This document shows, one piece after another, positions 2,188 to 55,492 of a stretch of DNA of 64,000 bases (position 1 is the stretch's first letter; the number at the start of each line of letters is the position of its first letter). The translations under genes were made by a program, and so were the position numbers. A model generated the notes under the pieces. The model did no database searches, had not been told where the DNA came from, and was given only the letters and a program-made list of their open reading frames with translations. Source of the stretch: Bacillota bacterium (GTDB taxonomy: Bacteria; Bacillota; Clostridia; Christensenellales; UMGS416); assembly GCA_023421955.1 (NCBI GenBank), contig JAEZSE010000018.1, positions 7,337 to 71,336 on the forward strand, written 5' to 3'.

Positions 2188-2398
2188 CGCCGTGAATACA
2201 TGAGATATGTAACATTACCGCAATAATTCTATAGGTTCTTTGTGCTAAAGGCACAATTTATACAAAGTTATTTCTGTTATTCTTATAAAGGCAATTTCCA
2301 GAATAGTGTAATATAATTGATTGCGGTTATGGATATTGTTGTGCCAATGACAATTCATAATGGTTGATTTATGAAATAAACAGCAAAGGCAGTTACTC

Positions 2399-10485: not shown

Positions 10486-10494
10486 CCGAAAAGC

Positions 10495-11523
10495 CTATTT
10501 AGTGATCAACTCTTTGATCGCGTTTACCACTGTGTCGATGTCAGGGCGGGTCACGTCATGGTTGGTCACAAACCGGTATTGCCCCGGCCCGCCATTGATC
10601 TTGATCCCGCGCTCCAGCAAGCCCTTTACGAGAGCTTCTCCAGTGATAACCGGCTCACTGAGGGTGATAAACACCATATTGATATCCAGGCAATCTCTGT
10701 TTACTTCAACGCCCACAATCTCTTCCAACCTGCCAGCCAGATAGCGGGCATTCGCGTGGTCATCGGCGAGTCTCTCCACCATATGGCGGAGAGCATGAAG
10801 CCCCGCCGCGCAGAGCACACCCACCTGGCGCATGCCGCCGCCCATGAGCTTGCGGCAGCGCCGCGCCCGCTCGATAAACGCCCTGTTTCCCACAACCACA
10901 GAACCCACCGGCGCGCAGAGGCCCTTGGAAAGGCACACCATCACCGAATCGGCGCAGGCAGCCAGCTCTCGGGCCGGCACACCGAGTGACAATGCGGCGT
11001 TGAACAGGCGCGCGCCATCCAGATGCACAGGGATCTTGTGGGCGTCTGCCAGAGCCTTCACAGCTCGCATGCTCTCCAGCCCGATCACCATGCCGTTAGA
11101 GCGGGCGTTTTCCAGGCAGATGAGGCCAGTGCGTGGCTCATGGATGTCATCACTGCGGATGCGGGCTGCCACCTGGCTTATGTCAATGGTTCGGCCATCC
11201 ACCTGAAAGCCCCGTGTCTGCACGGAGGAGAGCACCGCGGCGGCACCGGCCTCATGCCAGAGGATGTGGCAGCTGTCATCCAGCAAAATCTCGTCGCCCC
11301 GGCGAGTGTGGGCCATCACCGAAACCTGGTTGCCGAAGGTGCCGCTGGGCACGAAAAGGCCAGCCTCCTTGCCCAGCAGCTCTGCGGCCGCCTGTTCGAG
11401 TTCAGCCGCCGTGGGGTCGTCGCCATATACGTCGTCACCCACCGGTGCTGATGCCATCAGGCGGCGCATCTCCTCAGTGGGCTGGGTCACTGTATCGCTG
11501 CGCAAATCGATATATCTCATCTT
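10495..11523 (-). CDS. ltaE: low-specificity L-threonine aldolase
   Basis: Start at [12 protein letters not shown] with GGAGG 8 nt upstream. Motifs [27 protein letters not shown] (beta-eliminating lyase fold). Confidence 0.8.
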
Positions 11524-14256: not shown

Positions 14257-15363
14257 CTAGTCCAGAACATAAGGCAAAAACGGTTCTTTCATCAGCGCCG
14301 GGCGATCCACCGTGGATGCGATTTTAACAAATGCCTCTGAGTTCCCGGACTGCTCAATCGCCTTCATTACTTCGAGCACATGCAGAATCAATTCACCGCT
14401 GGCCCTAGGCCTTCGCCCCTTTTCAATCGCTGAAGCCTGGTCGGCAAGACCCAATCCGTGAACATGCTTGGGATATGGAAACAACAACGGCATCTCAAGG
14501 AATTCTCCCCGGTCTGGTTGAAGAATCGATACTGGACCGCCATAAGCGCTCATCCTCAACGCACCCTGTGTGCCATAAATCATCATTTGATTCTGCAACC
14601 CGGCGCAGGAGTCAAAACCCGTGATGATGCTGGCAGTCACGCCGTTCTCAAACCGCAGGAGCCCCATGATCTGGGTGGGTGTTTCCACCTGGATTTTTGT
14701 GCCAAACAACGGCTGGGAGGTAATGATACGTTCTGCAAACGCCATGGAGCACATCCCCGCAACCGATGCGACACTACCAAACACATTGATCAAAGCTGTA
14801 AGAGGGTAAACTCCCATATCCATCATCGGCCCGCCGCCCTCCCGGTAGAAAAAAGCCGGATTCTTGTGCCACGCCTCATGCCCTCGCAGCATCACCGACA
14901 CCGTAGCACCTGTAACTTTACCGATCCAGCCGTCATCAACAAGCTTCCGCAGGGTTTGATATCCTGCAGTAAGAAATGTATCCGGTGCCCCGCAAATGGT
15001 CAGGTGTTTGTTTCTGGCAGTCTCGAGCAAAACACGGCCCTGCTCCAGGGTCGCAGCCATCGCTTTCTCAGTATAGACGTGCTTTCCAGCCTCCAGGCAC
15101 TTCAGCGAGAGCGCAAAGTGTTCCTGCGGCGGGGTGAGGTTCAACACGATACTGGTGGAAGGATCGTGGAGTAACTCCTCCAGTGTGCCATACACCCTGG
15201 GAATTCCATAGCGCTCCGCCTGCGCTCTGGCGCGCTCCTCAGTCCGGCTATAGATTCCAACAACAGATATCTCCGAATACAATTGGGTCAGGTTCTTGAG
15301 ATATACATCCGAAATATCTCCAGCCCCGATCACTGCGATTCTTGTGATTGACATCGTATCCAC
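14257..15363 (-). CDS. Gfo/Idh/MocA family NAD(P)-dependent oxidoreductase
   Basis: N-terminal Rossmann motif IAVIGAGDIS and EKAMAA motif. Confidence 0.8.
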   Translation of the reverse strand: MDTMSITRIAVIGAGDISDVYLKNLTQLYSEISVVGIYSRTEERARAQAERYGIPRVYGTLEELLHDPSTSIVLNLTPPQEHFALSLKCLEAGKHVYTEKAMAATLEQGRVLLETARNKHLTICGAPDTFLTAGYQTLRKLVDDGWIGKVTGATVSVMLRGHEAWHKNPAFFYREGGGPMMDMGVYPLTALINVFGSVASVAGMCSMAFAERIITSQPLFGTKIQVETPTQIMGLLRFENGVTASIITGFDSCAGLQNQMMIYGTQGALRMSAYGGPVSILQPDRGEFLEMPLLFPYPKHVHGLGLADQASAIEKGRRPRASGELILHVLEVMKAIEQSGNSEAFVKIASTVDRPALMKEPFLPYVLD

Positions 15364-15377
15364 TCCTGCTTATCGTA

Positions 15378-15818
15378 TTAGGCCAACAGTGTATAGGAGA
15401 ATAAAAAAGCTCGCTTTTCGAAGCCTAGCTTTTGATAAAACGCGTGGGCGCTTTCTCTCGGAAAGCCCGAATCCAATTCCACACGCTTTAAGCCGTCGCG
15501 CCTGGCATTCTCAATAACATGCTCCAATAATGATGTGCCAAGGCCTCGCCCACGGAATGCTTCGTCCACAACCATTGCATAGATATATGCAATTTGCCCT
15601 TCTTGCCAAAGGTTGTTTACTACCGCGTAAGCGCAGAAACCAACAATCCTTCCTTCGGTGACCACACAAAACAACTCATCACTCCCAGACTCAGCGCCAC
15701 GTACAAACACAGAACGCAGAGCGACTCTGTCAATGGACTTGATGGGCCAAAGCTGTTCGAACAGTGGTTAAACCGCATCGAAATCCTGTGGTTCTGTAGT
15801 TCGTATGATAAAATCCAT
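15378..15818 (-). pseudogene. GNAT N-acetyltransferase interrupted by an in-frame TAA at codon 17
   Basis: ATG at 15818 with GGGAGAG RBS encodes MDFIIRTTEPQDFDAV, then TAA at 15768-15770. The same frame continues into the 15378..15710 ORF, which carries the GNAT core RGRGLGTSLL. Confidence 0.55.
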
Positions 15819-16006
15819 TGCAGCACTCTCCCACCTATTTCTTCTGTGAATCATATCCGGTATACAGCAAAAAGGACGGAATGTCTATTCATAAATCAGA
15901 GGCCAGCAGGTACATGAAAAGTGGAAGTGCGAATAATTATTGACAAACAATAATCAAGGAAGTATACTCCGAATATAATTATTGCAAAACAATAATCGAG
16001 GCGCAC

Positions 16007-33600: not shown

Positions 33601-36062
33601 GCGCCGCCATTAACGGTGAAGCTGGCGGCAGAGTCAGATAGCTGCGCAGCCACCATCACGCTGTCGATACGGTAATCCACGGCGTAGGCATGGTAATCCA
33701 GCGTATCTGGATGGAATGCCTTGCGCAATGTCAGCGAGCTTACGGCCAAGGATTCCAGCGTGGCATCCGCAGGCCGCGTCACCCTGAGCCTGTATTCTGT
33801 GTGACTCGTGCCATCCGATGAGTATACATCGACAGTCACATGGGTATCGCCCGGTGCAACAGGAAACGTCACCCATTGGCCCCGCGTCACACCGATACCA
33901 TTCACCGATACGGCGGCATAGCGGTCCGTTGCCGTGGCAAGGAGTTTGAGGCTGTCCATCCAGCGCGGCACCGTAACGGAGTACTCATTATCGCCTTCCG
34001 CAATTGGGATGCTCTTGGAATAGGACAGGTCCGGCTCTCCGTTCGCCAACAGCAAGCCGGTCAGGGAGTTGTCGTCGGTTTTCTGAAGCTTGTAAACACC
34101 AAGCTTATCGTCGTTGTTTATATTGGCAAGATAAAGTATATCACTGGAAAATTGATACTTGATCATCCCAAACGGAATATTGATCGATGGGATATCGATA
34201 TTTGACCAACTATCCCCAACAAGTTTGGCCAGCCCGAGCTTCACATCAGCGTTGTATTTTATGTGCGGAACACCGTCAACCAAATACAGGAAAATGTTAT
34301 GCCCAAATGAAACAGGATATCTTAGTTCTTGCCAAGAACCGCTTTGATAACGCAGAAATGAGCTAGCTGCCCGAGCCTGGTTCGTCACGGAAAAATAGAT
34401 TCTGCCCTGGGCCACAACATATGAATTGAGTATGAAGCCCTGTGGTGCATCGCAAACCTCCTGCCATTGGTTGTCTTCCAGACGCAAGATATGCACCTGG
34501 TATGTTAGCACGGTTTCTTCTGTAACAACTGTGGAATAAGCATAATACAGTTCATCCCCTGCCTCCGTCAACGCATTTCCAAATCCGGGTTCAAAGGCGT
34601 CGCCTCCAAACGGCGACCAGGCTCCATCCTGCAAAACATAGGTCTCAATGACTCCGGCGGCAGTCGTATTGTCATCGGTATAAACAGTTTGCGCAAAATA
34701 GACTTTGCCCTCATGCTTTGCCATCGTCAGTACCCTGGCAAACCCACCGCCTTGGATCGGAGAACCGACAGTGACCCAGTTCGGCGCCTCGTACTTCATG
34801 ATTGTGGACCGGCCGGCTGTGTTGGGATTCCGATCCACGTCGTCTACAAACGCAACGTAAAGCTCCCCATCTAGCATCCACAGTGTGATCTTGCTGGCAC
34901 AGCCAGTCGAAATCCCCCTTTTATCCAAGAAGACCCATTGAGACCCATCCCACTGCATCACTGACAGCTTCCACAATTGATCCTTTCCGTCGTTGAACGC
35001 AACATATGGCGTTCTGCCGTCCACAAGCATGTAATGATCAGATAATTCGCCGCCGGTGATGTTGTCTGAACCAATATTCTGTAATATGAAGGTCGAATAA
35101 TAGGCATTGATCGTATAGACACGGATAGAGCCGTTCTCAGCCGTCACTTCAATCATCACAGTCAGCTTGTTGTCGACGAGTTCCAGAGCACCAGACGGCT
35201 GGCCGCTTTCCGTTGGTGCGCCGTTAATCTTGATTGAAGCCGTATCGTCTGCCGCAGTTGCCGTAATGGTGAATTTTTTGCTTTCGACCAGCTCAAGCTT
35301 GTATTCTGTATCGTTGACGTTGGGTAGCTTAGTTAAGGTGCCTGTGCTTGCTACAAGTGAACTCAGATTGTTATTTGTACTGGGTGGCATGGGCAGCCAT
35401 GTGAGCGCAATCGTATAAGTTCGAGAGTTAACGCCGTCCTCTGCAATTACCTCTATCACAATTTCTGTATCGTCGCGAGACAATGGAACTCTTTGTGTCA
35501 TATGTGGCGGTTGCGCAATTGCTCCGTTAATCCTGACCGTCGCATTGTAGTCGTATCTGGATGCCATGATTTCGATGAACTCTACGTATTGGCTTTGCAG
35601 TGAATATTCGAAGACGTCAGGATCAAAAACTGGCGAAATGGAGACATCGGGAGAATACAATGCATGGAGTCTCGCGTCGTGACCTGCCGGTAGTTTATCG
35701 ATCTGCAGCGTATACTCCGTGATATTCCCTGATAAATCTGAAGCTTTTACCATTATTGTCGTCGAATCGGGCTGCAGTTGAATCGGGCCATATTTCACGC
35801 CGCGATCCACTGCAACGTCATTAATGGTAATTGCAATTCCATCCGCAGCCTCTGCCTGGATGAATATCTCATCTCGGCTGTATGGTACGGACATGGTGTA
35901 GCTCGTGGTGCTACCGGGAACATCATACCGGCTATCTCCGGCGAATACTGTCCAGGAGGTTAAAGAGGCAATGCCTTCTGCCGATACTGAACGCAACATA
36001 CAAATGGATAATACAACATTGATAAAAAGGATAACTGATATTTTACCGGCGAGCTTGAACAT
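30663..36062 (-). CDS. 1799-aa secreted modular surface protein
   Basis: Signal peptide MFKLAGKISVILFINVVLSICMLRSVSA. Six cadherin-like beta-sandwich domains. Three GWY...LYAKW Listeria-Bacteroides (Flg_new) repeats. Four C-terminal fibronectin type III domains. Confidence 0.8.
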   Translation of the reverse strand: MFKLAGKISVILFINVVLSICMLRSVSAEGIASLTSWTVFAGDSRYDVPGSTTSYTMSVPYSRDEIFIQAEAADGIAITINDVAVDRGVKYGPIQLQPDSTTIMVKASDLSGNITEYTLQIDKLPAGHDARLHALYSPDVSISPVFDPDVFEYSLQSQYVEFIEIMASRYDYNATVRINGAIAQPPHMTQRVPLSRDDTEIVIEVIAEDGVNSRTYTIALTWLPMPPSTNNNLSSLVASTGTLTKLPNVNDTEYKLELVESKKFTITATAADDTASIKINGAPTESGQPSGALELVDNKLTVMIEVTAENGSIRVYTINAYYSTFILQNIGSDNITGGELSDHYMLVDGRTPYVAFNDGKDQLWKLSVMQWDGSQWVFLDKRGISTGCASKITLWMLDGELYVAFVDDVDRNPNTAGRSTIMKYEAPNWVTVGSPIQGGGFARVLTMAKHEGKVYFAQTVYTDDNTTAAGVIETYVLQDGAWSPFGGDAFEPGFGNALTEAGDELYYAYSTVVTEETVLTYQVHILRLEDNQWQEVCDAPQGFILNSYVVAQGRIYFSVTNQARAASSFLRYQSGSWQELRYPVSFGHNIFLYLVDGVPHIKYNADVKLGLAKLVGDSWSNIDIPSINIPFGMIKYQFSSDILYLANINNDDKLGVYKLQKTDDNSLTGLLLANGEPDLSYSKSIPIAEGDNEYSVTVPRWMDSLKLLATATDRYAAVSVNGIGVTRGQWVTFPVAPGDTHVTVDVYSSDGTSHTEYRLRVTRPADATLESLAVSSLTLRKAFHPDTLDYHAYAVDYRIDSVMVAAQLSDSAASFTVNGGAAVNAQPCEVPLQTGENTIRLEVRSADGTATLVYTIMVKRAPGSWQSVGTTARIQQTVMGSGFSVFGDSLYFVYRDSLGTLHIQRNKAGEWQSIDPDKSLYRSATDFSLIEFDGVPTVAFTDDDDGLPNTPSKLRVLKYSGGIWSLTGGASIGTSRDAYVSTATQDGVLYVSYVSREDSNRNLIVKAYNGSTWQTVGEAVTEYSLGSDLAVINGMLYVAYVKTSGSSYSPTENYSISVKRLDNGHWVSVGEPVITAKGRSVISLFSYQGSPCLDYTELLYFNSLDDYAVDRHITVYSGGSWEDLYGTVALPGGGLTGNFISWDGGLYYTHHEVTDSSMLEVLLLNDGQWVEYGSALLANEGDMTGYGLTFINGVPYTLIFHADKTVEAKKYQLPDTASLAALEPASGTLSPSFSPGISEYTLTVGSAVTSIRFTIRPEDRYASITVNGEPLANEAQCTVSNLAYGNNDVSVEVVSADSSIRKSFIIHVNREFASFTVRFIVYGNYVMNQIVNYNTTVVKPSPDPSLTGYSFSGWYKDSTCSAGNQWDFVNDVITTNITLYAKWTTNTYTISFDSQEGSPCEDIMVSYEHDYGTLPTPNRTGFSFAGWYTQPSGGILVTSTTTVTTASDHTLYAKWTINTHTVTFNPQGGTAVAPKTAQYNATITAPTPPTRAGYVFQGWYKEASCTNAWIFSTEKVTADITLYAKWVSTMPASVKAASASYTSIKVTWNAVPGAAGYQVYYATSSAGPWTLKGAVTAPAYSSTGLVTGKYYYFKVRSYNAAKVYSAFSAVVSTRPIPAAPYSVKAAASSYNSAKVSWGAVSGATRYEVYRATSSSGSYALVGTATSASYINTGLRTGSPYYYKVRCYHLESNVKIYGAFSAVVSVKTVIGAPGSVNAARASSTSIKVTWGAIGGATKYELWRSTSSAGTYTLVAATSSLYYTNTKLTTGRVYYYMVRAYRLEGSTKVYGPWSAVVYAKP

Positions 36063-36295
36063 ATAATTGCTCCCATATCCATAGTCCAAAAGATAAAAAA
36101 CATACCGAAATAATTATATACTATCAGCAATAATTTCACAAGCACCATAATCGTTCACACAACCCCGCTCGGTCATTTCAACCCCCATCTCCGACACTTC
36201 AACCACAATATATTCTAAAATCATGCAGGAATTTCTATGATGGTATCAAAATATAGTAGGAAGTGATTGGCCAATCCAATCCGAGGAGGCGACAC

Positions 36296-38344
36296 ATGGG
36301 AGACATGATCTATTTGGTTTATGCCGCGATCGGCATTCTGGGGCTATGGTTTCTTTTATACTTTTCCGGCATCCGCTACATCCCCAACAACAAGGTGGGT
36401 ATCGTGGAAAAGCGTTACTCCACCAAAGGCAGCCTGAAGGAGCAGATCATCGCTCTGAACGGCGAGGCCGGCTTCCAGCCGGATGTGCTGCGCGGCGGCA
36501 TCTGCTTTGTGCCCCGGTTCATCCGCAAGGTGTATTTGGTGCCGCTGGTGAATATTCCCCAGGGCGAACTGGGTTACGTGTTCGCCCGTGACGGCAAGCC
36601 GCTGGAAAACGGCCAGACTTTGGGCAAAATCGTGCCGGAAGGCAGAAACTTCCAGTCAGTGCGCGGTTTTCTGACTGGCGGCGGCCAGAAGGGCCCGCAA
36701 CGCGGCATGCTGAGAGAAGGAACCTACGCCTTCAACCTGGCGCAGTTTGTGGTATTCACCAAGACACAGATCCATTACCTGCCGCTCAACCTGCCCGGTG
36801 AGCGCAATGACTTCACACTGATTGCACAGGACCTCTTTAAGAGAAAAGCCTACCAGCCCGTTGTGATTGACGGCAACTCCGACGCCATGGGGATCGTAAC
36901 AGTGCATGACGGCCCCACGCTGGCCACCGGTGAAATCATCGCGGCCAACGTATCTACAGGTGACCCAGCCACAGACCACAACAGTTTCCAGGACCCAGAA
37001 CGGTTCCTGGCCCTGGGCGGGCGAAGGGGCCGTCAGCATCAGGTGTTGGTGGAGGGCACCTACTTCATCAACGGCCTGTTTGCCACGGTGGAGATGCACC
37101 CCAAGACCACGATCAACGTGGGTGAGGTGGGCGTCGTAAACAGCTTCGTGGGCCCGGAGGGCCGCGACCTCTCCGGCGAAAGCTACAAGCATGGCGAGCT
37201 GGTGGAACAGGGCCACAAAGGCGTGTGGAAAGAGACGCTGCGCCCTGGCAAATACGCCTTTAACACCTATGCCGGCGCGGTGTTTGCCGTGCCTACCACC
37301 AACATCATCCTTAAGTGGATCCGCAATCAGCAGGGAGCCCACGGGTTTGACGCAAACCTCGCGGAAGTGACGCTCATCACGATGGACGCCTTCGAGCCCA
37401 CGCTGCCGCTGTCTGTCGTGATCCACATCAACTACACCGAGGCACCGCTGGTGATCCAGCGCTTCGGCGACATCCGAAAGCTCGTGGAACAGACCCTGGA
37501 CCCGATGGTGGCTGCCTACTTCAAGAACATAGGCCAGACCAAGACCTTGATCCAGCTGATCCAGGAGCGCAAGGAGATCCAGGAGAAGGCCGCTGTGGAG
37601 ATGCGCGAGAAATTTGCGCAGTACAACCTGAACTTGATCGAGGTGCTGATCGGCACACCGGGCAGCTCCAAGACCGACGGCCGCATCGAGACGATCCTCA
37701 GCCAGTTGCAGGACCGACAGATCGCCGATGAGCAGAAAACCACCTATGAGAGGCAGCGGCAGACAGCCATTGTCAAGCAGGGTTTGGTGGAGGCGCAGGC
37801 CAAGAGCGACATGCAGAAGAACCTGACGGAATCGGCCATCAATATTGAGCTGCAGAACAACCAGGGCCTGGCCGACCTCCGCAAGGCCGAACAGCAGGCC
37901 AACGTGATCCAGACCACAGCCCGGGCAGAAGCAGCCAAGACCGAGATCGCCGCAGGGGCGGAAGCCAAGCGCGTGCGGCTCACCTCTGAGGCCGAGGCCA
38001 ACCGCGTGGAGATGCTGGCCAACGCCGAAGCCACGAAAATCACAGCCACCGGCGCTGCCGAGGCTGGCAAGATCCAGGCAGTCGGCCTGGCAGAAGCTGA
38101 GGCGATCCGCAAGCAGGTGGAGTCCTACGGCTCCACCGGCGAATACATCCAGCTGCAGAGCGTGAAGGCATTCACCGGTGCGCTGAGCAGCTACCAGGGC
38201 GATCTGGTGCCGAAGACACAGTTCTCCGTGGGTGGAGGCGACGGCAAGCCCGCAAACCTTGCCGAGGTCTTCATGGCTCAGCTGATCGCGATGAATGGTG
38301 GTAAGCTTCCCGGCGGGCAGGCCGATCCGGAAAAGTCTGAATAG
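36296..38344 (+). CDS. flotillin-like SPFH (Band 7) domain protein
   Basis: GAGGAGG RBS. N-terminal TM helix, SPFH core, C-terminal Ala/Glu-rich coiled coil (LAEAEAIRKQVESYG). Confidence 0.75.
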   Translation: MGDMIYLVYAAIGILGLWFLLYFSGIRYIPNNKVGIVEKRYSTKGSLKEQIIALNGEAGFQPDVLRGGICFVPRFIRKVYLVPLVNIPQGELGYVFARDGKPLENGQTLGKIVPEGRNFQSVRGFLTGGGQKGPQRGMLREGTYAFNLAQFVVFTKTQIHYLPLNLPGERNDFTLIAQDLFKRKAYQPVVIDGNSDAMGIVTVHDGPTLATGEIIAANVSTGDPATDHNSFQDPERFLALGGRRGRQHQVLVEGTYFINGLFATVEMHPKTTINVGEVGVVNSFVGPEGRDLSGESYKHGELVEQGHKGVWKETLRPGKYAFNTYAGAVFAVPTTNIILKWIRNQQGAHGFDANLAEVTLITMDAFEPTLPLSVVIHINYTEAPLVIQRFGDIRKLVEQTLDPMVAAYFKNIGQTKTLIQLIQERKEIQEKAAVEMREKFAQYNLNLIEVLIGTPGSSKTDGRIETILSQLQDRQIADEQKTTYERQRQTAIVKQGLVEAQAKSDMQKNLTESAINIELQNNQGLADLRKAEQQANVIQTTARAEAAKTEIAAGAEAKRVRLTSEAEANRVEMLANAEATKITATGAAEAGKIQAVGLAEAEAIRKQVESYGSTGEYIQLQSVKAFTGALSSYQGDLVPKTQFSVGGGDGKPANLAEVFMAQLIAMNGGKLPGGQADPEKSE

Positions 38345-38351
38345 GGAGCAT

Positions 38352-38391
38352 CGCCAAAATGAAACAAGCCCCCGGCAAATCTGCCGGGGGC
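38352..38391. terminator. bidirectional terminator
   Basis: gcccccggca / tgccgggggc stem with T-rich flanks. Confidence 0.45.
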
Positions 38392-38424
38392 TTACAACTC
38401 CTTTCGGAGGTAAGTTGTTTTCCA

Positions 38425-38871
38425 TTAGCTCCAATACGTATAAACCTTTACTAGCCCCGAATCAAAGTCAATCACCGCCTCGGCATACATGGCCCCGCCG
38501 CCGGGCTCGATTGCAAAATTCTTTATGCCTTCCATCTCCACGCCGGCATCCCTGAGGCCGGGCGATGCTTCCACCCAGTCCTTCAGGTCATCTTCCGGCA
38601 AAACGAAGCTGGCCCGAAACGCTCGCGTAAAAGGACCGCCTTCTGTTGAAATGGTAAACTGCTCCTTGGAATCAGGGACCGGGGCAAGCCTGGCCCACTC
38701 CTGCGTGCATTCCAGCATGCTTGCCTGAGCCGACGGATCCTGATTGTTTCGGTCGTTGGATGGGGCAAGGATCTGGATTATGTTGAAAGCGGTATATGCG
38801 GCAAAGGAAATGACGAGACCGCCGATCACACAGGCGGCGATGATCAGTATCGTGTTACGGCGGTATTTCAT
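38425..38871 (-). CDS. membrane-anchored hypothetical protein
   Basis: Start MKYRRNTILIIAACVIGGLVISF (single TM helix) followed by an extracytoplasmic domain. Confidence 0.45.
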   Translation of the reverse strand: MKYRRNTILIIAACVIGGLVISFAAYTAFNIIQILAPSNDRNNQDPSAQASMLECTQEWARLAPVPDSKEQFTISTEGGPFTRAFRASFVLPEDDLKDWVEASPGLRDAGVEMEGIKNFAIEPGGGAMYAEAVIDFDSGLVKVYTYWS

Positions 38872-39017
38872 TTGTTCCCCCAATGAATTCGATTCGTTAT
38901 TCAAAATCAAGACACATGTAGGCTCCTTGCCGATTAGTTGTGGACACTACTCCTCTGTCTATCCTATTGCGATAATACTTCTAACCAATACCCCCGTCAA
39001 GGAAAATTGCATACTTG

Positions 39018-40193
39018 TCAATCCAGATAGTGCCCCCTGATCCTCTCCAACGCCGCCTCATCCCCTGCCAGCGCGGCCTCAATGTCATCCAGGCTTCGCG
39101 CCTTCAGCGGCAAAGGCAGCCTCGCCACCGGTAGCTGGGCAAAGAGCATTTTCTCGATCTCGCCCTGTGGCATAGCGTCATCGGCAAGGGCGACCACCGG
39201 CAGGGAGCATACCTTGTTGGCCACGTCGGATTGCACGCCTTTGGACAGCAGCGCCGCCACAAACGCGGTTGCCGCAGCGTTTTTCGTCTCACTTTCAGAG
39301 CGCACCACAGCAGCAAACTGCACCGACAGGCAGGGCCGCAGGCCGTTGGGCCAGGGCAGAGCCGCATAATCAAATGCCTTGTTTTTGGAAGCCAACCGGC
39401 CCATCAATGCCGTCTCCCATTGGCTGCACAACAACACCGCGCACCGCCTGGCGGAATAGACTGACCGGGCCTGATCAATGCTCATGCGGAACGCCTTGTC
39501 CGGCAGCAAGTTCTTTTCCTTAAAAACAGCCAATGATATACCATCCAGTGCCAGGGACTCAAACAGTGGTGCTGCACCGGCTATCGCCATCCCTGGCTTT
39601 TTGCGCCGGCCAGTGGCGGCTGACTGAGCATATGCCAGTAACGCATCGGCAGTCCATGTTGTGTCATTCACCGGCGGCTCCACGCCAACGGCGCGGCCCA
39701 CCTCATTGTTGGTGAGCACCAGTTGCCCACCAGCCATCCAGGGCACAGCACGGGAGTCTGCAGAGAAGAGCCTCGCGAACGGGCTTGACAGCGGCGGAAG
39801 AGCAGCGGAATTGAAATCCAGCAACAGCTCTCCATCAATGCCCGCCCATCCGTCGGGGAAGGAGACCACATCGGGCAATTCTCCGGCAGCAAGACGCTGG
39901 GCGAACTGCTCCGCCGTCACGTTTTCCGCTTCCACAAACACGCCGATATTGGCCTTCTCAAAGCGCCGGGCAGCTCCTTGCAGCAGGTTGGTGCGGCTGT
40001 AACTGCCCACTCGCCAATCGTTCACCTGCCAGACCTTCAACACACCCTGGTAGGGGGATTGCCTTGGGCTCAAAAACCTCACCTCATCATAGGGCTTCAG
40101 TTTACCGGGGAACAGGAACACGCCAGCCACCACTATGCCGCCCAGCAGTATGGTAAAGAGGATTGGTTTGACGAACTGCCTGAATTGATGCAT
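39018..40193 (-). CDS. membrane-anchored extracytoplasmic protein of unknown function
   Basis: Start MHQFRQFVKPILFTILLGGIVVAGVFLF. ~360-aa soluble domain. Confidence 0.45.
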   Translation of the reverse strand: MHQFRQFVKPILFTILLGGIVVAGVFLFPGKLKPYDEVRFLSPRQSPYQGVLKVWQVNDWRVGSYSRTNLLQGAARRFEKANIGVFVEAENVTAEQFAQRLAAGELPDVVSFPDGWAGIDGELLLDFNSAALPPLSSPFARLFSADSRAVPWMAGGQLVLTNNEVGRAVGVEPPVNDTTWTADALLAYAQSAATGRRKKPGMAIAGAAPLFESLALDGISLAVFKEKNLLPDKAFRMSIDQARSVYSARRCAVLLCSQWETALMGRLASKNKAFDYAALPWPNGLRPCLSVQFAAVVRSESETKNAAATAFVAALLSKGVQSDVANKVCSLPVVALADDAMPQGEIEKMLFAQLPVARLPLPLKARSLDDIEAALAGDEAALERIRGHYLD

Positions 40194-40482
40194 ACGGTTC
40201 ACCCGTATATATCTATTCAGCCGGCAGTAGTTCCTATTCAACAGACATGTTATGGGCAATACAGAATGGAGCAACAATTCATGCCTTCATGATATCGATA
40301 GATATTAGGCGCTTCGGTGATATGTTGTATCATGGATATAGCACGATGAAAGGGAGAAATTGAAAAATGATCTATGCCGAGCACATGGCATATAGCTGAA
40401 AGGTGACAGAGCCCCGCCCCACAGGGGCAAGCAGATTCAATCTCAAAACGCAAACTTCAGCTCATTGAACCTCACCGTGTCA

Positions 40483-41253
40483 TCAGGCCTGGCCATTCCC
40501 GACCAAGGGCGCAACGCTTGGCTTTTTGTAAAAGTACAATGCAAGCCCCATAACAAGGATAAGGAGCGCGATGAATTGCGACGTGGACAGGAACGCGATG
40601 CTGCCGCGATTGTCATTGCGCAAAAACTCAATCAAGAAGCGCCCCACACTGTAGAGGACAAGATAAGCCGCGCCGGTCTTTCCATCCGGACGGTTTTTCC
40701 TTGCATGAAGAAGCAGCAGCAAAGCGATTGTAAAGTCCCCCACGCTCGAGAAAAGCTGCGTCGGGATAAGCTGCACACCGCCGGGCGCAAGGCTGCCATC
40801 GGGAAATGTGACACCATACCAGGCGTCGGTTTCACGGCCGTAGCAGCAGCCCGCAAGAAAGCACCCGATCCGTCCGAACCCCTGCGCCAGCGCCACCGAC
40901 GGAACCAGAAGGTCGAGATATTTCAGGAAAGAGACCTTTTTAACACGGCAGTAGAGCATCGCCGCGACCACGCCCCCAACGATGCCCCCATAAACCACAA
41001 ACCCGCTGCCGGATAGAAATTCCCAGGGATTATCTAGAAATGAATAGAAATTGATCAGGCAGTAAAGAAGCTTTGCGCCAAAAAAGCCCGACAAAAGCGC
41101 TACTATACCGATGCCATAAATCATGTTCTCGTCCAGCCCCTTTTTAGGGGAGCGGAGCACAGCCAGAATCACGGCCAGGATCACGCCGACTGCGATCATC
41201 AGCCCATAGCCATGCATCGTTACGGGGCCAATCGAGAACAGATTGTTGTACAT
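40483..41253 (-). CDS. lgt: prolipoprotein diacylglyceryl transferase
   Basis: GFGRIGCFLAGCCYG signature and 7 TM helices. Confidence 0.9.
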   Translation of the reverse strand: MYNNLFSIGPVTMHGYGLMIAVGVILAVILAVLRSPKKGLDENMIYGIGIVALLSGFFGAKLLYCLINFYSFLDNPWEFLSGSGFVVYGGIVGGVVAAMLYCRVKKVSFLKYLDLLVPSVALAQGFGRIGCFLAGCCYGRETDAWYGVTFPDGSLAPGGVQLIPTQLFSSVGDFTIALLLLLHARKNRPDGKTGAAYLVLYSVGRFLIEFLRNDNRGSIAFLSTSQFIALLILVMGLALYFYKKPSVAPLVGNGQA

Positions 41254-41276: not shown

Positions 41277-42542
41277 TTAGTCCCAAAACTCAAACTCCAA
41301 CTCATTGAGCCTCACAGTATCATCATGCTTGGCCCCCATCTCCCGGAGCTTCTCAATGATCCCGGTTTCATACAGCCTGCGCTCAAAAAACTGCATGCTC
41401 GTGCTGTCGGAGAAATTCGTGGAGTCGATGATCTTGGTGATCAGCGGTCCGGTCACCACGTAGACATCATCCTCCATGTCCACGGTGTAGTCGTTGTTGG
41501 GCAGCGACTCCAGTTCCTCCATCTCCTCGTGGAACACCTCCACCGGAGGCAGATCGGCCAGCTTTTTGGCCACGGCGCGCATCAGCTCCAACAAGCCCTG
41601 GTTGGTGGCGGCGGAAACCGGATACACCTCATAGCCCTGCGCTTTGCAGTGGTTGGTGAGTTCCTCCAGATAAACCTCCGCGTCGGGCAGGTCAGTCTTG
41701 TTGGCAGCCACGATCTGCGGGCGGCCGGCCAACACGGCGCTGTAAAGCCTCAATTCCTTGTTGATCTGCTCAAAGTCCTGCACAGGGTCGCGGTCCTCAC
41801 TGCCGGAGGCATCGATCACATGCACCAGAAGCCTGGTGCGCTCCACATGCCGGAGGAAGTCGTGCCCCAGGCCTGCGCCTTCGTGGGCGTTTTCGATGAG
41901 GCCGGGGATGTCTGCCACCAAAAAGCTCTTACCATCCACCTCGGCCACGCCCAAATTGGGCGACAGAGTGGTGAAGTGGTAGTTGGCGATCTTCGGGCGG
42001 GCGCGGGTGACCACCGAAAGCATTGTGGACTTGCCCACGTTGGGGAAGCCCACCAGGCCCACGTCGGCGATGGTTTTCAGCTCCAGCGATACCTCATAGC
42101 CCTTGGTTTTCTGGCCCGGCTGGGCGAAGTTGGGGGCCTGACGGGTGGGTGTGGCATAGTGCACGTTGCCCCAGCCGCCACGGCCTCCCCGCAGCACCAT
42201 ACGGCGCTCACCGGGCACATACATATCGGCCACCACGCGGCCGGACTCCATCTCGCGTATCACGGTGCCCACCGGCACTTTGATGATGAGGTCTTCCCCA
42301 TCCTTGCCAAAGCACTTGTTGGCGCCGCCAGGTTCCCCATCCACTGCCTCATACTTCCGCTGATAGCGGAAGTCCAGAAGCGTTCGCATGCCGGGGTCGG
42401 CCTCAAACACAATGCTGCCGCCGCGGCCGCCGTCGCCGCCGTCCGGGCCGCCCTTTTGCACCATCGCCGAGCGGTGGAAAGACACCTTGCCGTTGCCGCC
42501 GTCGCCGGATTTGATGAGGATTTTCGCGGTATCTACAAACAT
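41277..42542 (-). CDS. obg: GTPase Obg/CgtA
   Basis: MFVDTAKI...SGDGGNG Obg-fold, G-domain GFPNVGKST, C-terminal OCT domain. Confidence 0.9.
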   Translation of the reverse strand: MFVDTAKILIKSGDGGNGKVSFHRSAMVQKGGPDGGDGGRGGSIVFEADPGMRTLLDFRYQRKYEAVDGEPGGANKCFGKDGEDLIIKVPVGTVIREMESGRVVADMYVPGERRMVLRGGRGGWGNVHYATPTRQAPNFAQPGQKTKGYEVSLELKTIADVGLVGFPNVGKSTMLSVVTRARPKIANYHFTTLSPNLGVAEVDGKSFLVADIPGLIENAHEGAGLGHDFLRHVERTRLLVHVIDASGSEDRDPVQDFEQINKELRLYSAVLAGRPQIVAANKTDLPDAEVYLEELTNHCKAQGYEVYPVSAATNQGLLELMRAVAKKLADLPPVEVFHEEMEELESLPNNDYTVDMEDDVYVVTGPLITKIIDSTNFSDSTSMQFFERRLYETGIIEKLREMGAKHDDTVRLNELEFEFWD

Positions 42543-42691
42543 TTTGCTCTCACTTCATGGGCCGATTGTTCTGACCCTAGTATTGGTTATCGCTTCATAT
42601 GACATGTAGGGGTTCATGATTTGAACCCCTACTGAATTCGGATAATTATACCATATTACGAGAGATAGAGTAAGAGTTCATGCTATGCAGC

Positions 42692-42720
42692 ATGACAAGT
42701 ATACAAATTACTGTTATAAT
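42692..42720 (+). promoter_or_regulatory. sigma-70-like promoter (ATGACA, 17 nt, TGtTATAAT) for the AT-rich gene
   Basis: Extended -10 element with near-consensus spacing. Confidence 0.45.
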
Positions 42721-42767
42721 GATCACATGTCATAAATATGCGAATTTCGTCAGTGAAAGGTAGCATC

Positions 42768-43412
42768 ATGTTTGCAGTGAACACCTATGAAGAGATCGAA
42801 AAAATCGAACGTGCGATAAATGAAATGCATATTGTAATACTGTTATTTGTACGTCCAAGTCTGCGTGGTGCTCAAGAAATAATTGACGAGTTTAACTACA
42901 TTCATCACAATTCAGAAAAGTTTTGTTCGATTTACTCAGTAGGATATACAAATGATCCATCTCTTGCCAACAACAACGAGCACAAACGAGTAACCGGTAC
43001 AAATGGAGCAGATTGGTATTTCAATGATCAAAAATTTATTGAATTCAAAAACAGTCTTGAACGCAGACTTAATTGGAAATACTCAGGTGAGATCGAATTA
43101 CTAGTATTGCAAAGCAACCCGAACGGACACCACATACTTAACTTTCAAAACTATGTAGCGATTGATGTAAACTACGGAATTAAACACGATTATATTGATT
43201 CGTTCCCGAGACTCATGGAATCTATAATCCGAAATTCACGCTCCGAAGTTACAGCATCGTCAGTGATTAATAAAGTAAGTAATTCTCGCCTAAGTATAAG
43301 GAGTGTTATTCAAGAAACGATCAGCGAATGCAAAAAGATCCCTACACCAGTGAAAAAGATTCTTAAGGATCACCTATTCTATTTATCATCTACACACATA
43401 CCTGGAAGATGA
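42768..43412 (+). CDS. AT-rich orphan gene (214 aa) inserted between obg and nfnAB
   Basis: GC ~38% against ~59% in flanking DNA. Own promoter, RBS GAAAGG and downstream hairpin. Opposite strand to both neighbours. No recognisable family. Confidence 0.5.
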   Translation: MFAVNTYEEIEKIERAINEMHIVILLFVRPSLRGAQEIIDEFNYIHHNSEKFCSIYSVGYTNDPSLANNNEHKRVTGTNGADWYFNDQKFIEFKNSLERRLNWKYSGEIELLVLQSNPNGHHILNFQNYVAIDVNYGIKHDYIDSFPRLMESIIRNSRSEVTASSVINKVSNSRLSIRSVIQETISECKKIPTPVKKILKDHLFYLSSTHIPGR

Positions 43413-43474
43413 CAATATCAAAAGCAATATTCCCCAACTATAATTCATGTAATCAAGTCACGCATAAGTAACAA

Positions 43475-43503
43475 CCCCTCTTCCATGGTTTTTGGAAGAG
43501 GGG
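43475..43503. terminator. bidirectional hairpin terminator
   Basis: cccctcttcc / ggaagagggg 10-bp stem. Confidence 0.5.
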
Positions 43504-43537
43504 CTTACGTTTGTACTATAGAAAGAAAATCAAGTAA

Positions 43538-44917
43538 TTATTCCGACAACCTCTTATGGATTGCCGCCGCCGCCTTCTTGCCGGCGCCCATCGCCAAAAT
43601 CACCGTGGCAGCGCCGGTAACAGCGTCACCGCCGGCATACACGCCCGGCAGGCTGGTCTCGCCGGTCTCCTCCGCCACAACGATGCCGCCCCATTTCTGG
43701 ATCTGGATGCGGGGCTCGCTGTTGGTGAGCGCCGGGTTGGGGCGGGTGCCGATGGCAATGACCACCACGTCGCAATCCATCGTGAACTCGCTGCCCTCGA
43801 TAGGCTTCACGCCCCGGCGGCCACTGCTGTCCGGCTCGCCCAGCGCCATTTTCACGCACTTGAGGCCGGTTACAAAGCCGTCTTGCCCCAGCACCTCGAT
43901 GGGGTTGGTGAGCATATCGAAGATGATGCCCTCCTCCTCGGCGTGCACGACCTCTTCGGCACGGGCAGGCATTTCTGTGCGGGACCGGCGGTAGACGATG
44001 TGCACCTCTTCGGCTCCCATACGGAGCGCGCAGCGGGCGGCGTCCATCGCCACGTTGCCGCCGCCGACCACGGCCACCCTGCGGCCCTTTTTCACCGGTG
44101 TGGCGGCGTCGGGCTGATATGCCTTCATCAGGTTGATGCGGGTCAAAAACTCATTGGCGGAATAAACACCGATCAGGTTTTCACCGGGGATCTTCATAAA
44201 CTGCGGCAGCCCAGCCCCGGAGCCGATGAACACGGCCTGGAAGCCTTCTTCCTCCAGCAGTTGGTCAATGGGTGTGCCATAGCCCACGGCCACGTTGGTC
44301 TCCAGCTTCACACCCAGCTCTTTGAGGCCGGCGATTTCGTCAGCCACGATGCTCTTGGGCAGGCGGAACTCGGGGATGCCATAGACCAGCACGCCGCCGG
44401 GCGTATGCAGCGCCTCAAAGATTGTCACATCATAACCAAGCCGCGCCAGATCGCCTGCGCAGGTGAGGCCGGCGGGGCCTGAGCCCACCACGGCCACCTT
44501 TTTGCCGTTGGGCGCTTCCTTATGCAGATCCTTCAAACTGGCCTTTCGGGCGAAATCGGCGGCGAAGCGCTCCAGGTTGCCGATGGCGATGGGCCGGCCG
44601 GCTTTCTGGAACACGCACAGCTTTTCGCACTGCTCCTCCTGCGGGCACACACGGCCGCAAACACCTGGCAGGCTGTTGGTGCTGGTGATCACTTCATATG
44701 CCTTGTCAAAATCACCGGCCTTGATGTGGCTGATGAACTGGGGGATCGGCACGCTCACCGGGCAACCGGCCACGCAGCCGGGCTTTTTGCAGTTGATGCA
44801 GCGCTCGGCCTCAGCCATTGCCTGCTCGTCGGTATAACCCAGCGCAACTTCGTCAAAGCAGCGGGCACGCTCCATCGCGTCCCGTGCGTCCATATGCATC
44901 CGTTCTTTCATCGCCAT
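43538..44917 (-). CDS. nfnB: NfnB, NADPH-dependent GltD-like subunit of NADH-dependent reduced ferredoxin:NADP oxidoreductase
   Basis: N-terminal Cys clusters (CINCKKPGCVAGCP, CGRVCPQEEQCEKLC), FAD and NADPH Rossmann motifs. Start is 1 nt after the nfnA stop. Confidence 0.8.
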   Translation of the reverse strand: MAMKERMHMDARDAMERARCFDEVALGYTDEQAMAEAERCINCKKPGCVAGCPVSVPIPQFISHIKAGDFDKAYEVITSTNSLPGVCGRVCPQEEQCEKLCVFQKAGRPIAIGNLERFAADFARKASLKDLHKEAPNGKKVAVVGSGPAGLTCAGDLARLGYDVTIFEALHTPGGVLVYGIPEFRLPKSIVADEIAGLKELGVKLETNVAVGYGTPIDQLLEEEGFQAVFIGSGAGLPQFMKIPGENLIGVYSANEFLTRINLMKAYQPDAATPVKKGRRVAVVGGGNVAMDAARCALRMGAEEVHIVYRRSRTEMPARAEEVVHAEEEGIIFDMLTNPIEVLGQDGFVTGLKCVKMALGEPDSSGRRGVKPIEGSEFTMDCDVVVIAIGTRPNPALTNSEPRIQIQKWGGIVVAEETGETSLPGVYAGGDAVTGAATVILAMGAGKKAAAAIHKRLSE

Positions 44918-44918
44918 C

Positions 44919-45764
44919 TCAACCACCCACCTTGCAGGCATGCCGCTCGTTGGCTGCCTTTTCTTCTCCGCGATAGGCGGTCAGCCGCTTCATCGCTTCG
45001 TCAAAATCCACCTGGTGGGCATCAAACTCCGGGCCGTCCACGCAGGCATATTTGGCCTCGCCGCCCACACTGATGCGGCAGCCGCCGCACATGCCGGTGC
45101 CATCCACCATGATGGGGTTCATGCTGGCCCAGGTCTTCACACCGTATTCCTTGGTCATCCTGCTCACGAACTTCATCATGATCACTGGCCCGATCGTGAT
45201 CACCTCGTCATAGTGCTCTGCTTCCAACAGCTCGCGCAAGACGTCGGTGACCAGGCCCTTGCGGCCCCTGGTGCCGTCATCAGTGGTGATGAACAGCCGG
45301 TTGCACACGGCACGGACTTCGTCCTCCAGGATGATCAAATCCGCACTGCGGGCGCCGATGATCACGTCTACATCCACGCCGCGCTCATAAAGCGCCTTCA
45401 CCTCCGGATAAACCACGGCCACACCCACGCCACCGCCCACGCACAGCACATGGCCGTGGTCAGGGAGCTCAGCCGGCTTGCCCAGCGGGCCTAAAAAGTC
45501 CAGCAACGCCTGGCCGGGCTCCATCGAAGCCAGCAGTCTGGTGGCGTGGCCCACAGCCTGGAAAATAATCGTAACTATTCCTTTTTCATGATCCACATCG
45601 GCCATTGTGAGCGGGAAACGCTCGCCTTGCTCATTCACACGAATCATAACAAATTGGCCTGGTTGGGCGCGCCTGGCAGCGCGGGGGGCCAGAATATCCA
45701 TGCGGTAAGTATCAGGGCCGATCTGGTTTTTGGTGAGAATCTGATACAAGGGGGTTACCTCCAT
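44919..45764 (-). CDS. nfnA: NfnA, ferredoxin-NADP reductase-like small subunit
   Basis: PyrK-like FAD/NAD-binding fold with a C-terminal Cys cluster (CGGCRISVGGEAKYACVDGP). Confidence 0.8.
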   Translation of the reverse strand: MEVTPLYQILTKNQIGPDTYRMDILAPRAARRAQPGQFVMIRVNEQGERFPLTMADVDHEKGIVTIIFQAVGHATRLLASMEPGQALLDFLGPLGKPAELPDHGHVLCVGGGVGVAVVYPEVKALYERGVDVDVIIGARSADLIILEDEVRAVCNRLFITTDDGTRGRKGLVTDVLRELLEAEHYDEVITIGPVIMMKFVSRMTKEYGVKTWASMNPIMVDGTGMCGGCRISVGGEAKYACVDGPEFDAHQVDFDEAMKRLTAYRGEEKAANERHACKVGG

Positions 45765-53931: not shown

Positions 53932-54840
53932 TATAAAGGAAAACAAAACAAGCTGCCCTGGCTTTTGCTGTTCTTTGGAATCATTTGCATCTCCATATCA
54001 GCATTCTTTGTTAAGAAAGCTCATGTGAATGGCATATCGGTTTCATTTTATCGGGTCTTCTTTGCATTTCTGTTCATATTGCCATTCTATATCCGGGTAA
54101 AAAGCAAAGATATGAAGTTGAAAGGAATCTGCCTATCCTTGCTGGGCGGCATGTTTTTCGCATTTGAATTGGTGTTTTGGAATACGGCTGTCCTAATCTC
54201 CAACACAACATTTCCAACCCTGATCGTCAATCTTTCCTCGGTATGGGTCGGGATAGGGGCAATGATACTATTCAAGGAGAAGCTAACCCGCTTCCATTGG
54301 ACAGGCAATCTGACTGCGATTCTTGGGGTAGCAGTGATCATCGGGATCAATAATGTCATCCATATGAAAATCGATACCGGATTTGTGTTCTCCATTATCG
54401 CAAGCATATTCCTTGCTCTGTATATTTTATCAGTAAAAGAAGTCAGGCAGAAGAACAGCACAATCCAAGTGGTCTTTTTCACTTTCTTAGGGTGTACCAT
54501 TACACTATTGATTTGCTGCATTTTTACGGGCAGTGCATTATATGGTTTCGCTCCGTCATCTTGGGTCTACTTGCTATGCCTGGGCCTAATCACACAGGTT
54601 GGGGGATATTTCTCCATCAATTATGCTCTCGGATTTATTGATTCGTCCAAAGTTTCAATACTCACATTATTTCAACCGATACTTACCGCTGTGTTTGCCG
54701 TGATCGCCCTGAATGAAGAATTTACGGTTTACCATATCATCGGCGGAGCCCTGGTGCTGGCAGGACTTGCTTTTGCATTGCTGGTTAAAGATAATGGTCA
54801 TACCCTGAAATCAGCACAAAAAAATGATCACATGCGGTAG
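53932..54840 (+). CDS. EamA/DMT-family transporter
   Basis: 10 TM helices in two EamA repeats. Confidence 0.75.
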   Translation, partial: YKGKQNKLPWLLLFFGIICISISAFFVKKAHVNGISVSFYRVFFAFLFILPFYIRVKSKDMKLKGICLSLLGGMFFAFELVFWNTAVLISNTTFPTLIVNLSSVWVGIGAMILFKEKLTRFHWTGNLTAILGVAVIIGINNVIHMKIDTGFVFSIIASIFLALYILSVKEVRQKNSTIQVVFFTFLGCTITLLICCIFTGSALYGFAPSSWVYLLCLGLITQVGGYFSINYALGFIDSSKVSILTLFQPILTAVFAVIALNEEFTVYHIIGGALVLAGLAFALLVKDNGHTLKSAQKNDHMR

Positions 54841-54871
54841 GATATGGACTCGACCTCCTCATATGAATCCC

Positions 54872-55492
54872 TCAGCTTCTTTCGTGCAACCAGGCTCTCA
54901 CTGCCGCAACCGTTTCGTCCATCGCAATGCCGGTGGTGTCCAACAACGATATGGCCGGGTTGGTGCGCCCGGCGTTTTCTTTCAGCCACCGGTTGAACTG
55001 CACATGGTTGCGGATATTTTCCTCACCGCCTGAGCCTCTCCACTGCGGGCGAGCTTTCAACCGCGCGGCCAGCACATCATCGTCGCAGACCAATGCAAGA
55101 TAGTGCAGAGCAGAAAAATACCGCCGCTCCACACAAGGCTCAAACTGCTCCGGCACGGCGCAGCCGCACAGCACCACCGATTTGCCAGCCTGCGAAATGT
55201 TTTTACATACCCGAAGCCACATCTCACGATATTGCCGGTAGTCCGGCCCCTGGTTTGCATACTCGTTTTGCCAGAGGATATCACTTTCCATCACGACCAC
55301 GTTATCGGTGCGTTGTGCAAGCTCCAGGCACACCGATGATTTGCCCGCACCGCTGGCACCGGTAATCACAAACAACGGCAGCTGCCGGAAGAGGTGCCTG
55401 TGGCCGCACTCCGGGCAGATCGCGAAGGGCCCATCGGGGTCTATGGATTTTTCAGCGTGGTAACTGCCGCAGCGAGCGCAGGTGTTGAACAT
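54872..55492 (-). CDS. P-loop NTPase/kinase-like protein with an N-terminal zinc ribbon
   Basis: CARCG...CPECG ribbon, then Walker A ITGASGAGKSS. Confidence 0.5.
   Translation of the reverse strand: MFNTCARCGSYHAEKSIDPDGPFAICPECGHRHLFRQLPLFVITGASGAGKSSVCLELAQRTDNVVVMESDILWQNEYANQGPDYRQYREMWLRVCKNISQAGKSVVLCGCAVPEQFEPCVERRYFSALHYLALVCDDDVLAARLKARPQWRGSGGEENIRNHVQFNRWLKENAGRTNPAISLLDTTGIAMDETVAAVRAWLHERS

Follow-up and report, generated by a model that had tools for sequence, protein, structure and literature searches.

An AT-rich, horizontally acquired gene between nfnB and obg represents an undescribed protein family with a predicted thioredoxin-like fold and a candidate role in defence

The spacer between nfnB and obg in a Bacillota bacterium of the Christensenellales (assembly GCA_023421955.1) harbours a single AT-rich orphan gene. 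It lies in a stretch of 64,000 nucleotides (contig JAEZSE010000018.1, positions 7,337 to 71,336 of the forward strand), here called the window, and all positions below are counted from its first letter. Comparison with the closest relatives indicates that horizontal transfer brought it in as a single-gene cassette. Its product belongs to an undescribed family of cytoplasmic proteins of ~210 amino acids, for which modelling predicts a redox-dead thioredoxin-like fold without a CxxC motif. The family is nomadic, borne by mobile genetic elements, and recurs within or next to defence systems. From these associations, the leading explanation, to which we give about even odds, is that the gene is a self-contained defence or conflict gene, directed against phage or other mobile DNA.

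Acquisition is read from the empty orthologous site. The closest relatives of the window's Obg are P0272 (97% amino acid identity) and P0273 (95%), with no others above 90%. Their contigs, L058 (GCA_023435705.1) and L060, keep the order hemerythrin–nfnA–nfnB–obg–lgt, and the nfnB–obg spacer, of 352 nt and 245 nt respectively, holds no gene. By BLASTN, nucleotide identity across nfnAB and obg–lgt is 92% for L058 and 88% for L060; this homology ends exactly at the nfnB stop (43539) and restarts at 42636, which is 4 nt past the hairpin of the obg leader. The segment in between takes the place of a spacer stretch that measures 257 nt in L058 and 151 nt in L060. Its left limit possibly lies as far in as ~42655, and its right limit may fall anywhere in 43413–43538. 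Since the gene is absent from the same site in both sister genomes, it was gained by the window's lineage. An earlier reading of this DNA, made from the letters alone (hereafter the sequence-only reading), had proposed a recent horizontal acquisition. The empty junction in the two closest genomes and a composition which has not ameliorated bear this out, and orthologues at the nfnB–obg junction in all relatives, as expected of an ancient gene, are not found. The presence–absence polymorphism that it had suggested looking for at this junction is seen at the level of sister species and not of strains, since each of the four contigs whose Obg is identical has the orphan gene (the Obg 90% cluster has one member).

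No integrase or transposase gene lies between obg and nfnB, and no conserved small open reading frame (ORF) was found within the insert. Terminal repeats or a target duplication around the insert are limited to chance-level 9–10-mers. Conserved non-coding flanks or a donor sequence were likewise not detected, as homologous loci resemble this one at the nucleotide level within the coding sequence (CDS) only, by at most 72%. Of the marks of a genomic islet, deviant composition and an empty orthologous site are present; insertion machinery or scars are not.

The compositional deviation is pronounced. GC content is 36.3% over 42600–43510 and 36.1% over the orphan CDS, and the five 900-bp windows of lowest GC in the 64 kb all overlap the orphan-gene region (mean 54.4%, standard deviation 4.6). 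At third codon positions, GC is 0.335 in the orphan gene versus 0.80 in obg and 0.79 in nfnB. The sequence-only reading had described a single AT-rich gene on the strand opposite to both neighbours; this description is accurate, as the ORF list contains only one plus-strand ORF between obg (41277–42542, minus strand) and nfnB (43538–44941, minus strand). Its background of ~59% GC has to be corrected, since the whole window has 54% and only the genes directly flanking the orphan region reach 60–65%. The family gene also has a lower GC content than its flanks in many other hosts (0.37 versus 0.60 in L029), and an equal one in L012–L014, L018, L020 and L022. Milder low-GC stretches of 1 kb occur elsewhere in the window at 54001–55000, 2001–3000 and 15001–16000 (0.45–0.48 versus a mean of 0.54), the orphan gene being more extreme.

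The orphan gene is a real gene that looks expressed. The mechanical ORF starts at 42738. Since every homologue begins with MF followed by alanine or serine, the true start is the ATG at 42768, which a ribosome-binding site (RBS) precedes by 7 nt (Table 1).

No motif of the protein could be placed by the sequence-only reading, and profile searches against Pfam, NCBIfam, PHROGs and PADLOC agree with this in returning noise only (SepF, E 0.16; KaiB, E 0.15; phrog_14564, E 0.14). PADLOC-DB v2.0.0, with 5027 models that include 145 PDCs, gave 0 families at E ≤ 10. The family itself is large and well conserved. At E ≤ 0.01 it comprises 207 clusters with identities of 50–73% and lengths of ~212 amino acids; among the best 120, identity to the query is 51–100% and length mostly ~207–230 amino acids. 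The hosts are Clostridia and Erysipelotrichia (Faecalispora, Lachnospiraceae, Oscillospiraceae, Anaerovoracaceae, Breznakia and Absicoccus). In an alignment of 43 sequences, 30 columns are invariant and 37 nearly invariant. An exhaustive HMMER search extends the family to a wider superfamily of 346 representative clusters (50% identity) at E ≤ 1e-3. This superfamily includes a distant branch of ~240–255 amino acids, which has the same full-length architecture plus a ~40-residue N-terminal insertion; in a third large protein search, the profile of this branch retrieved only 19 unannotated proteins of ~205–310 amino acids. A profile of 99 superfamily sequences found nothing below E 0.25 among PDB sequences, and Pfam recognised CHAT only, in 2 of the 99 members.

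Three ORFs were found to be chimeric. In P0123, family residues 1–197 continue into a HerA ATPase, of which the C-terminal third is present, P0129 joins RepA_N to family residues 52–207, and P0133 carries an unrelated C-terminus. They reflect either recombination inside the gene or artefacts of assembly or gene calling.

The AlphaFold2 model (mean pLDDT 77, pTM 0.78) has the predicted secondary structure β-α-β-α-β-(β-hairpin)-α-β-β-α, after which come three helices predicted less confidently. The thioredoxin-like domain comprises approximately residues 1–140 and displays the β1-α1-β2-α2-β3-α3-β4-β5-α4 topology of this fold with a mixed central sheet, to which an extra β-hairpin (residues 73–85) and a conserved helical tail of ~70 residues are added. 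Foldseek searches against PDB and BFVD returned generic thioredoxins only, none at E ≤ 1e-3, and the best match is the non-catalytic b′ domain of PDILT. Thioredoxins carry the WCGPC motif after strand 2. At this point the protein reads VRPSL and the family VRPS, which by the register of the secondary structure elements probably occupies the WCGPC position. No CxxC or CxxS is present at the start of helix 2. The only cysteines are C53 and C187, neither of them conserved across the superfamily, and the thioredoxin-type Pfam families gave no match even at E ≤ 10.

The (nearly) invariant residues of the superfamily are mostly aromatic or glycine and proline (P30, G59, Y60, W83, W103, Y105 and G107). 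The C-terminal tail carries the motif CKKIPxPVKxIxKDRLFY, in which K189, D201 and F204 are invariant. The flavodoxin-like, TIR or SLOG fold suggested by the sequence-only reading was not recovered: the fold search gave the mixed-sheet thioredoxin topology, and neither the all-parallel sheet of a three-layer α/β/α sandwich nor a matching profile was found, which rules these folds out. An IS200-like HUH transposase was also considered and rejected, as the HUH motif is missing and the consensus reads YIHYNS.

The genomic contexts of the relatives were surveyed in 45 species-representative genomes, taking the proteins within two genes as neighbours and clustering them by BLASTP. No partner gene is conserved across the 45 species, and 92 of the 129 flanking proteins are singletons; a toxin–antitoxin partner was sought among the relatives' loci, and no conserved neighbour emerged. 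In eight species, the family gene lies inside a type I restriction–modification (R-M) operon. With the family gene as X, the order hsdM-hsdS-...-X-...-hsdR on one strand is seen in L026, L027, L028, L034, L036 and L053, and the same arrangement is found on the partial contigs L032 and L055. In L034 the family gene is the sole gene embedded between hsdS and hsdR. Elsewhere it shares the operon with an AbiJ_NTD4 protein (PADLOC PDC-S32) or a KAP NTPase (PDC-S20). In five species the gene stands beside Septu, either as ptuA-ptuB-X (L025) or with PtuA within ~1–2.6 kb (L044, L050–L052). The search for homologues near known defence islands, which the sequence-only reading had suggested, leads to these loci.

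Mobile elements are a further recurrent setting. P0101, which occurs on 138 contigs, lies outermost in an element with integrase, HTH_17, AAA_25 and NikA genes, which has at least four different left flanks and represents an integrative mobilizable element (IME). P0002 is cargo of an integrative conjugative element (ICE), with a BglII R-M system on one side and a HATPase_c_3 protein on the other. Integrases occur within 6 kb of the family gene in five further species. Phages, by contrast to these elements, did not yield the gene: there was no tblastn match in 50,697 phage genome records and no confirmed match in a pattern scan of IMG/VR, and the best PHROG match is at noise level (E 0.14), so that presence in phage or prophage was not found. 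Lastly, two distant members, P0211 and P0197, carry the family domain N-terminal to a CHAT caspase-like protease.

Some other loci of distant homologues are described here for completeness. In Clostridium (L067–L071, 7001–14627), P0405 heads a block encoding proteins of 60 and 45 amino acids, DUF6998, and proteins of 154, 256 and ~1460 amino acids, the last of which has no Pfam match. This block has two different left flanks (aromatic-amino-acid genes, or a serine-recombinase/ImmA element) and behaves as a mobile island. The only match in the plasmid collection, at 32% identity, is L063 (Pseudoalteromonas pPBSW1, 264030–272023), where small unrelated genes on the same strand form a cassette-array-like arrangement next to a tyrosine recombinase and two transposases, one of them of IS91. 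In L064 (4432–7674) and L065 (278–3520), a three-gene operon encodes a 219-amino-acid protein, a stand-alone CHAT protease (255 or 279 amino acids) and a 557-amino-acid fusion of the domain to CHAT; it adjoins an oppositely oriented DnaJ-domain gene and a trypsin/PDZ protease gene that shares its orientation, and may be a multi-protease conflict system.

A defence or conflict role is suggested because homologues recur in type I R-M operons, by Septu and as IME or ICE cargo, following the logic of guilt by embedding. This approach has led to seven experimentally confirmed systems, and more than half of the R-M-embedded genes are still unexplained (Payne et al. 2024, bioRxiv 10.1101/2024.01.29.577857). 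By the criteria of that study (nesting on the same strand within a multi-gene defence system, and neither mobilome nor housekeeping), the homologues of L026, L027, L028, L034, L036 and L053 qualify as defence candidates, and the window copy does not. The rate of R-M embedding is 13–18% of species; for a random gene far less than 1% would be expected, a value which is an author's estimate and not a computed control. The sequence-only reading had considered a defence, immunity or abortive-infection factor plausible. Association speaks for this part of it, and no known defence model is matched.

Several observations weigh against a defence role or against the way in which it might be exerted. About 70% of the species-level loci have no recognised defence gene within two genes, P0004 and P0264 lie in housekeeping neighbourhoods, and the window's own copy has neither a defence nor a mobility gene nearby. 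The CHAT fusion is rare (2 of the 99 superfamily members scanned). In L018, L020 and L022, from Pygmaiobacter massiliensis, an uncultured Clostridium and Enterocloster citroniae, an OmpR-type regulator and a histidine kinase immediately follow or face the family gene (~10001–10650), while ABC exporters or a CPBP/Rce1-like protease precede it and its GC content is that of the host; this setting is reminiscent of the sensing of, or immunity to, peptide toxins and not of phage defence. The C-terminal tail is modelled at low confidence (pLDDT 53–71). Furthermore, only a few polar residues are invariant in the superfamily (H46, S86, E98 and E151), and for this reason a catalytic or sensor role cannot be read from the sequence.

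The loci L018, L020 and L022 speak for an orphan immunity protein, that is, a stand-alone, horizontally spread cytoplasmic binder which neutralises a competitor's bacteriocin or a polymorphic or contact-dependent toxin. A CPBP protease or ABC exporter combined with a two-component system is a neighbourhood typical of peptide-toxin immunity or resistance, and both the stand-alone, nomadic gene of ~210 codons without partner and a fold resembling non-catalytic, protein-binding thioredoxin domains would suit such a binder. However, no Pfam immunity (Imm) family was matched and no toxin gene was recognised among the neighbours, and an immunity gene would not be expected to be embedded repeatedly on the same strand of type I R-M operons, to follow Septu or to be fused to CHAT proteases, which makes this explanation distinctly unlikely in our view. 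The gene could also be neutral or selfish cargo of mobile elements with a non-defence role (element maintenance, regulation or stress), which hitch-hiked into the nfnB–obg spacer; the defence genes next to its relatives would then reflect only shared residence in variable regions. This would account for the majority of loci without a recognisable defence neighbour, the terminal position in an IME, where the genes for the integrase and an excisionase-like HTH_17 protein adjoin it, the occurrence in Clostridium and Pseudoalteromonas islands without assigned role, and the window copy without defence context. It is harder to reconcile with strong purifying selection over the full length across hundreds of lineages, with persistence as a lone gene that has a strong promoter of its own and no mobility gene nearby, and with the eight of 45 species in which the gene sits inside a type I R-M operon, although the background for that figure is only the author's estimate. 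We regard the cargo explanation as fairly unlikely.

An enzyme of the thioredoxin superfamily with non-thiol chemistry (ArsC-, GST- or peroxiredoxin-like), conferring a metabolic or detoxification trait, would be compatible with the fold and with the conserved R29-P30 (following strand 2) and W103-x-Y105-S106-G107 (preceding strand 4), which by register lie near the canonical active site. Nevertheless, the superfamily lacks CxxC as well as any conserved cysteine, the distant branch has not kept R29, no catalytic thioredoxin-fold Pfam family matched at E ≤ 10, and no metabolic operon context recurs; such an enzyme is very unlikely. That the ORF is a decaying remnant or a chance reading frame in AT-rich junk DNA would fit its isolation and the lack of a mobility gene beside it. 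As a chance reading frame it is effectively refuted, and the explanation as a whole is extremely unlikely: the gene is intact and of the same length as more than 200 homologues, the alignment preserves the 30 invariant and 37 nearly invariant columns given above, RBS and promoter are good, and the fold prediction is confident.

If the protein does act in defence, its redox-dead thioredoxin domain could be the binding (sensor) module for an invader-derived protein or a small ligand. Non-catalytic thioredoxin domains of the PDI b′, ERp27 and Dim1 type act as binding modules. The conserved C-terminal tail would then provide the output, via oligomerisation or engagement of a host target, and CHAT would replace or extend this output in the rare fused relatives. 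The back-to-back promoter TGgTATAAT of the insert would keep the essential obg expressed. This division into sensor domain and output tail is a speculative scheme drawn by analogy, which we consider rather improbable in this form. The more general proposal, a founding member of an unrecognised single-protein immune family with a redox-dead thioredoxin sensor, acting alone in Firmicutes and elsewhere occasionally wired to CHAT, is a tentative one that is doubtful but within reach.

Comparison with known systems places the family among familiar arrangements with unfamiliar components. Like the HEC and PDC candidates (PDC-S32, PDC-S20), the family homologues lie on the same strand between hsdS and hsdR, several of them side by side with these candidates, and like them they have no mobility or housekeeping annotation; the family differs in that it matches none of the 145 PDC models and in that the window copy is not embedded. 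PrrC, the anticodon nuclease of the EcoprrI type I R-M locus, is a precedent for a defence gene nested in an R-M operon, and TgvAB of the Vibrio cholerae island VPI-2 is another independent defence function in this position (PMC11411939). The family has no ABC-ATPase, nuclease or GmrSD domain and no sequence relation to either. Moreover, PrrC is almost exclusively embedded (bioRxiv 10.1101/2024.01.29.577857), whereas most family members are not.

On the structural side, the likeness is to the b′ domains of PDI and PDILT, to ERp27, Wind/ERp29 and Dim1/Dim2, at an identity of only 8–14% and without detectable sequence homology. Those domains belong to eukaryotic proteins of the endoplasmic reticulum or the spliceosome, and the family differs from them by its additional β-hairpin 73–85 and the helical tail. 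CHAT effectors provide a further comparison. Since two distant members are fused to CHAT, the family domain is tied to a recognised class of conflict effectors, and P0211 moreover follows a stand-alone CHAT gene; the window's protein itself has no CHAT domain. A literature search for a thioredoxin-like defence domain or a link between CHAT and thioredoxin found nothing relevant. A single-gene accessory or defence candidate in a variable region is thus a familiar kind of find, and the protein family and its fold in that role appear to be undescribed.

Should the defence reading be true, the gene would be a compact (~210 amino acids) immune gene without partner, with a fold so far not linked to phage defence; under the more general proposal above, prokaryotic immunity would gain a new sensor scaffold in the thioredoxin fold. 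The family is common in gut Clostridia, which defence catalogues cover poorly, and this may explain its omission from PADLOC, even though it occupies R-M-embedded slots like those of catalogued candidates. The CHAT fusions would then be a way into the signalling of the family domain. If the defence reading is wrong, the gene is an ordinary orphan accessory gene. Whatever its function, the locus presents a clean single-gene gain at base-pair resolution, in which the insert overwrote the promoter of an essential gene and appears to have supplied a replacement.

The latter point follows from the arrangement of signals in the spacer (Table 1). The near-consensus extended −10 promoter that the sequence-only reading had noticed upstream of the orphan gene holds up, with 11 of 12 consensus positions matched. 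Promoter-like and terminator-like sites in the orphan stretch are not commoner than in shuffled sequences; what speaks for these signals is how well they match and where they stand, not their number. In the sister genomes, the obg promoter is TTCCAG-17-TGcTATACT, 9 nt upstream of the leader hairpin. As judged from the alignment, the insert overwrote this ancestral promoter, and it probably supplies divergent back-to-back promoters for its own gene and for obg. The obg-directed TGgTATAAT was not picked up by the consensus scan owing to its weak −35 element. A perfect 10-nt inverted repeat (TATGACATGT / ACATGTCATA, at 42598–42607 and 42725–42734) brackets both divergent promoters, with one arm in the conserved host leader and the other in the insert just past the orphan −10. 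It could be an operator pair or a chance occurrence, there being more perfect 10-mers in the same 1.1 kb.

The sequence-only reading had credited the orphan gene with flanking hairpins of its own, which has to be withdrawn. No hairpin exists at 42628–42654; the perfect 11-bp one nearby, at 42606–42632, belongs to obg. This stem-loop and the 65 nt up to the obg ATG are kept in L058–L061, all of which lack the orphan gene, and because of this conservation we assign the hairpin to the leader of the host obg mRNA and not to the insert. The leader (42543–42632, minus strand) consists of the stem-loop GTAGGGGTTCA-N5-TGAACCCCTAC and then ~65 conserved nt, with counterparts at 5909–6000 in L058 and 5910–6002 in L060. 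It is kept where Obg is at least 95% identical and absent in L062 (Obg 86%). Its fold has a z-score of −3.4, an Rfam scan of 42300–43700 gave no match, and no second copy of the hairpin was found within the window. The stem-loop may stabilise the 5′ end of the transcript or serve in the regulation of the essential GTPase gene. An integron cassette and a REP-like repeat were tried as identities for this region and ruled out, the former since nothing resembling attC is present and the upstream hairpin belongs to the host, the latter since the hairpin is unique in the window.

The downstream hairpin does exist, with a stem of 11 bp instead of the 10 bp described before. Its fold z-scores are −3.8 on the plus strand and −4.3 on the minus strand, with terminator-like tails on both strands. 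The window and the two sister genomes each carry a different, non-alignable hairpin downstream of nfnB. The putative terminator would be shared with nfnB and could stem from the host or from the insert.

Table 1. Positions of the orphan gene, the replaced segment and the associated signals in the window
Feature	Position	Strand	Description
Foreign or replaced segment	42637..43538		~0.9 kb, 35.6% GC; delimited by BLASTN against L058 and L060
Orphan CDS	42768..43412	+	214 amino acids plus stop; predicted thioredoxin-like N-terminal domain, helical C-terminal tail
RBS GAAAGG	42755..42760	+	7 nt before ATG 42768; read directly from the sequence
Putative orphan-gene promoter ATGACA, 17 nt, TGtTATAAT	42692..42720	+	sigma-70-type, extended −10; 11/12 consensus matches, TG present; within the inserted AT-rich DNA
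Putative replacement obg promoter TGgTATAAT	42645..42653	-	extended −10; 12 nt upstream of the leader hairpin, back-to-back with the orphan-gene promoter
obg leader stem-loop	42606..42632	-	perfect 11-bp stem; host feature at the 5′ end of the obg leader
GC-rich 11-bp hairpin	43475..43503	both	in the interval where the orphan gene and nfnB converge with their 3′ ends; bidirectional, intrinsic terminator-like

On the other side of obg, synteny with the sister genomes breaks again past lgt (window ~36000–41253 versus 7290–13266 in L058 and 7291–13266 in L060). Here the window encodes an SBP_bac_1 protein, a 161-amino-acid protein and a Band_7 protein, while the sisters have a Mem_trans or bPH protein and then yhbY, a Mrr_cat protein, nadD, an HD protein and rsfS. 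The region beyond lgt is a second variable spot or a rearrangement adjoining obg–lgt.

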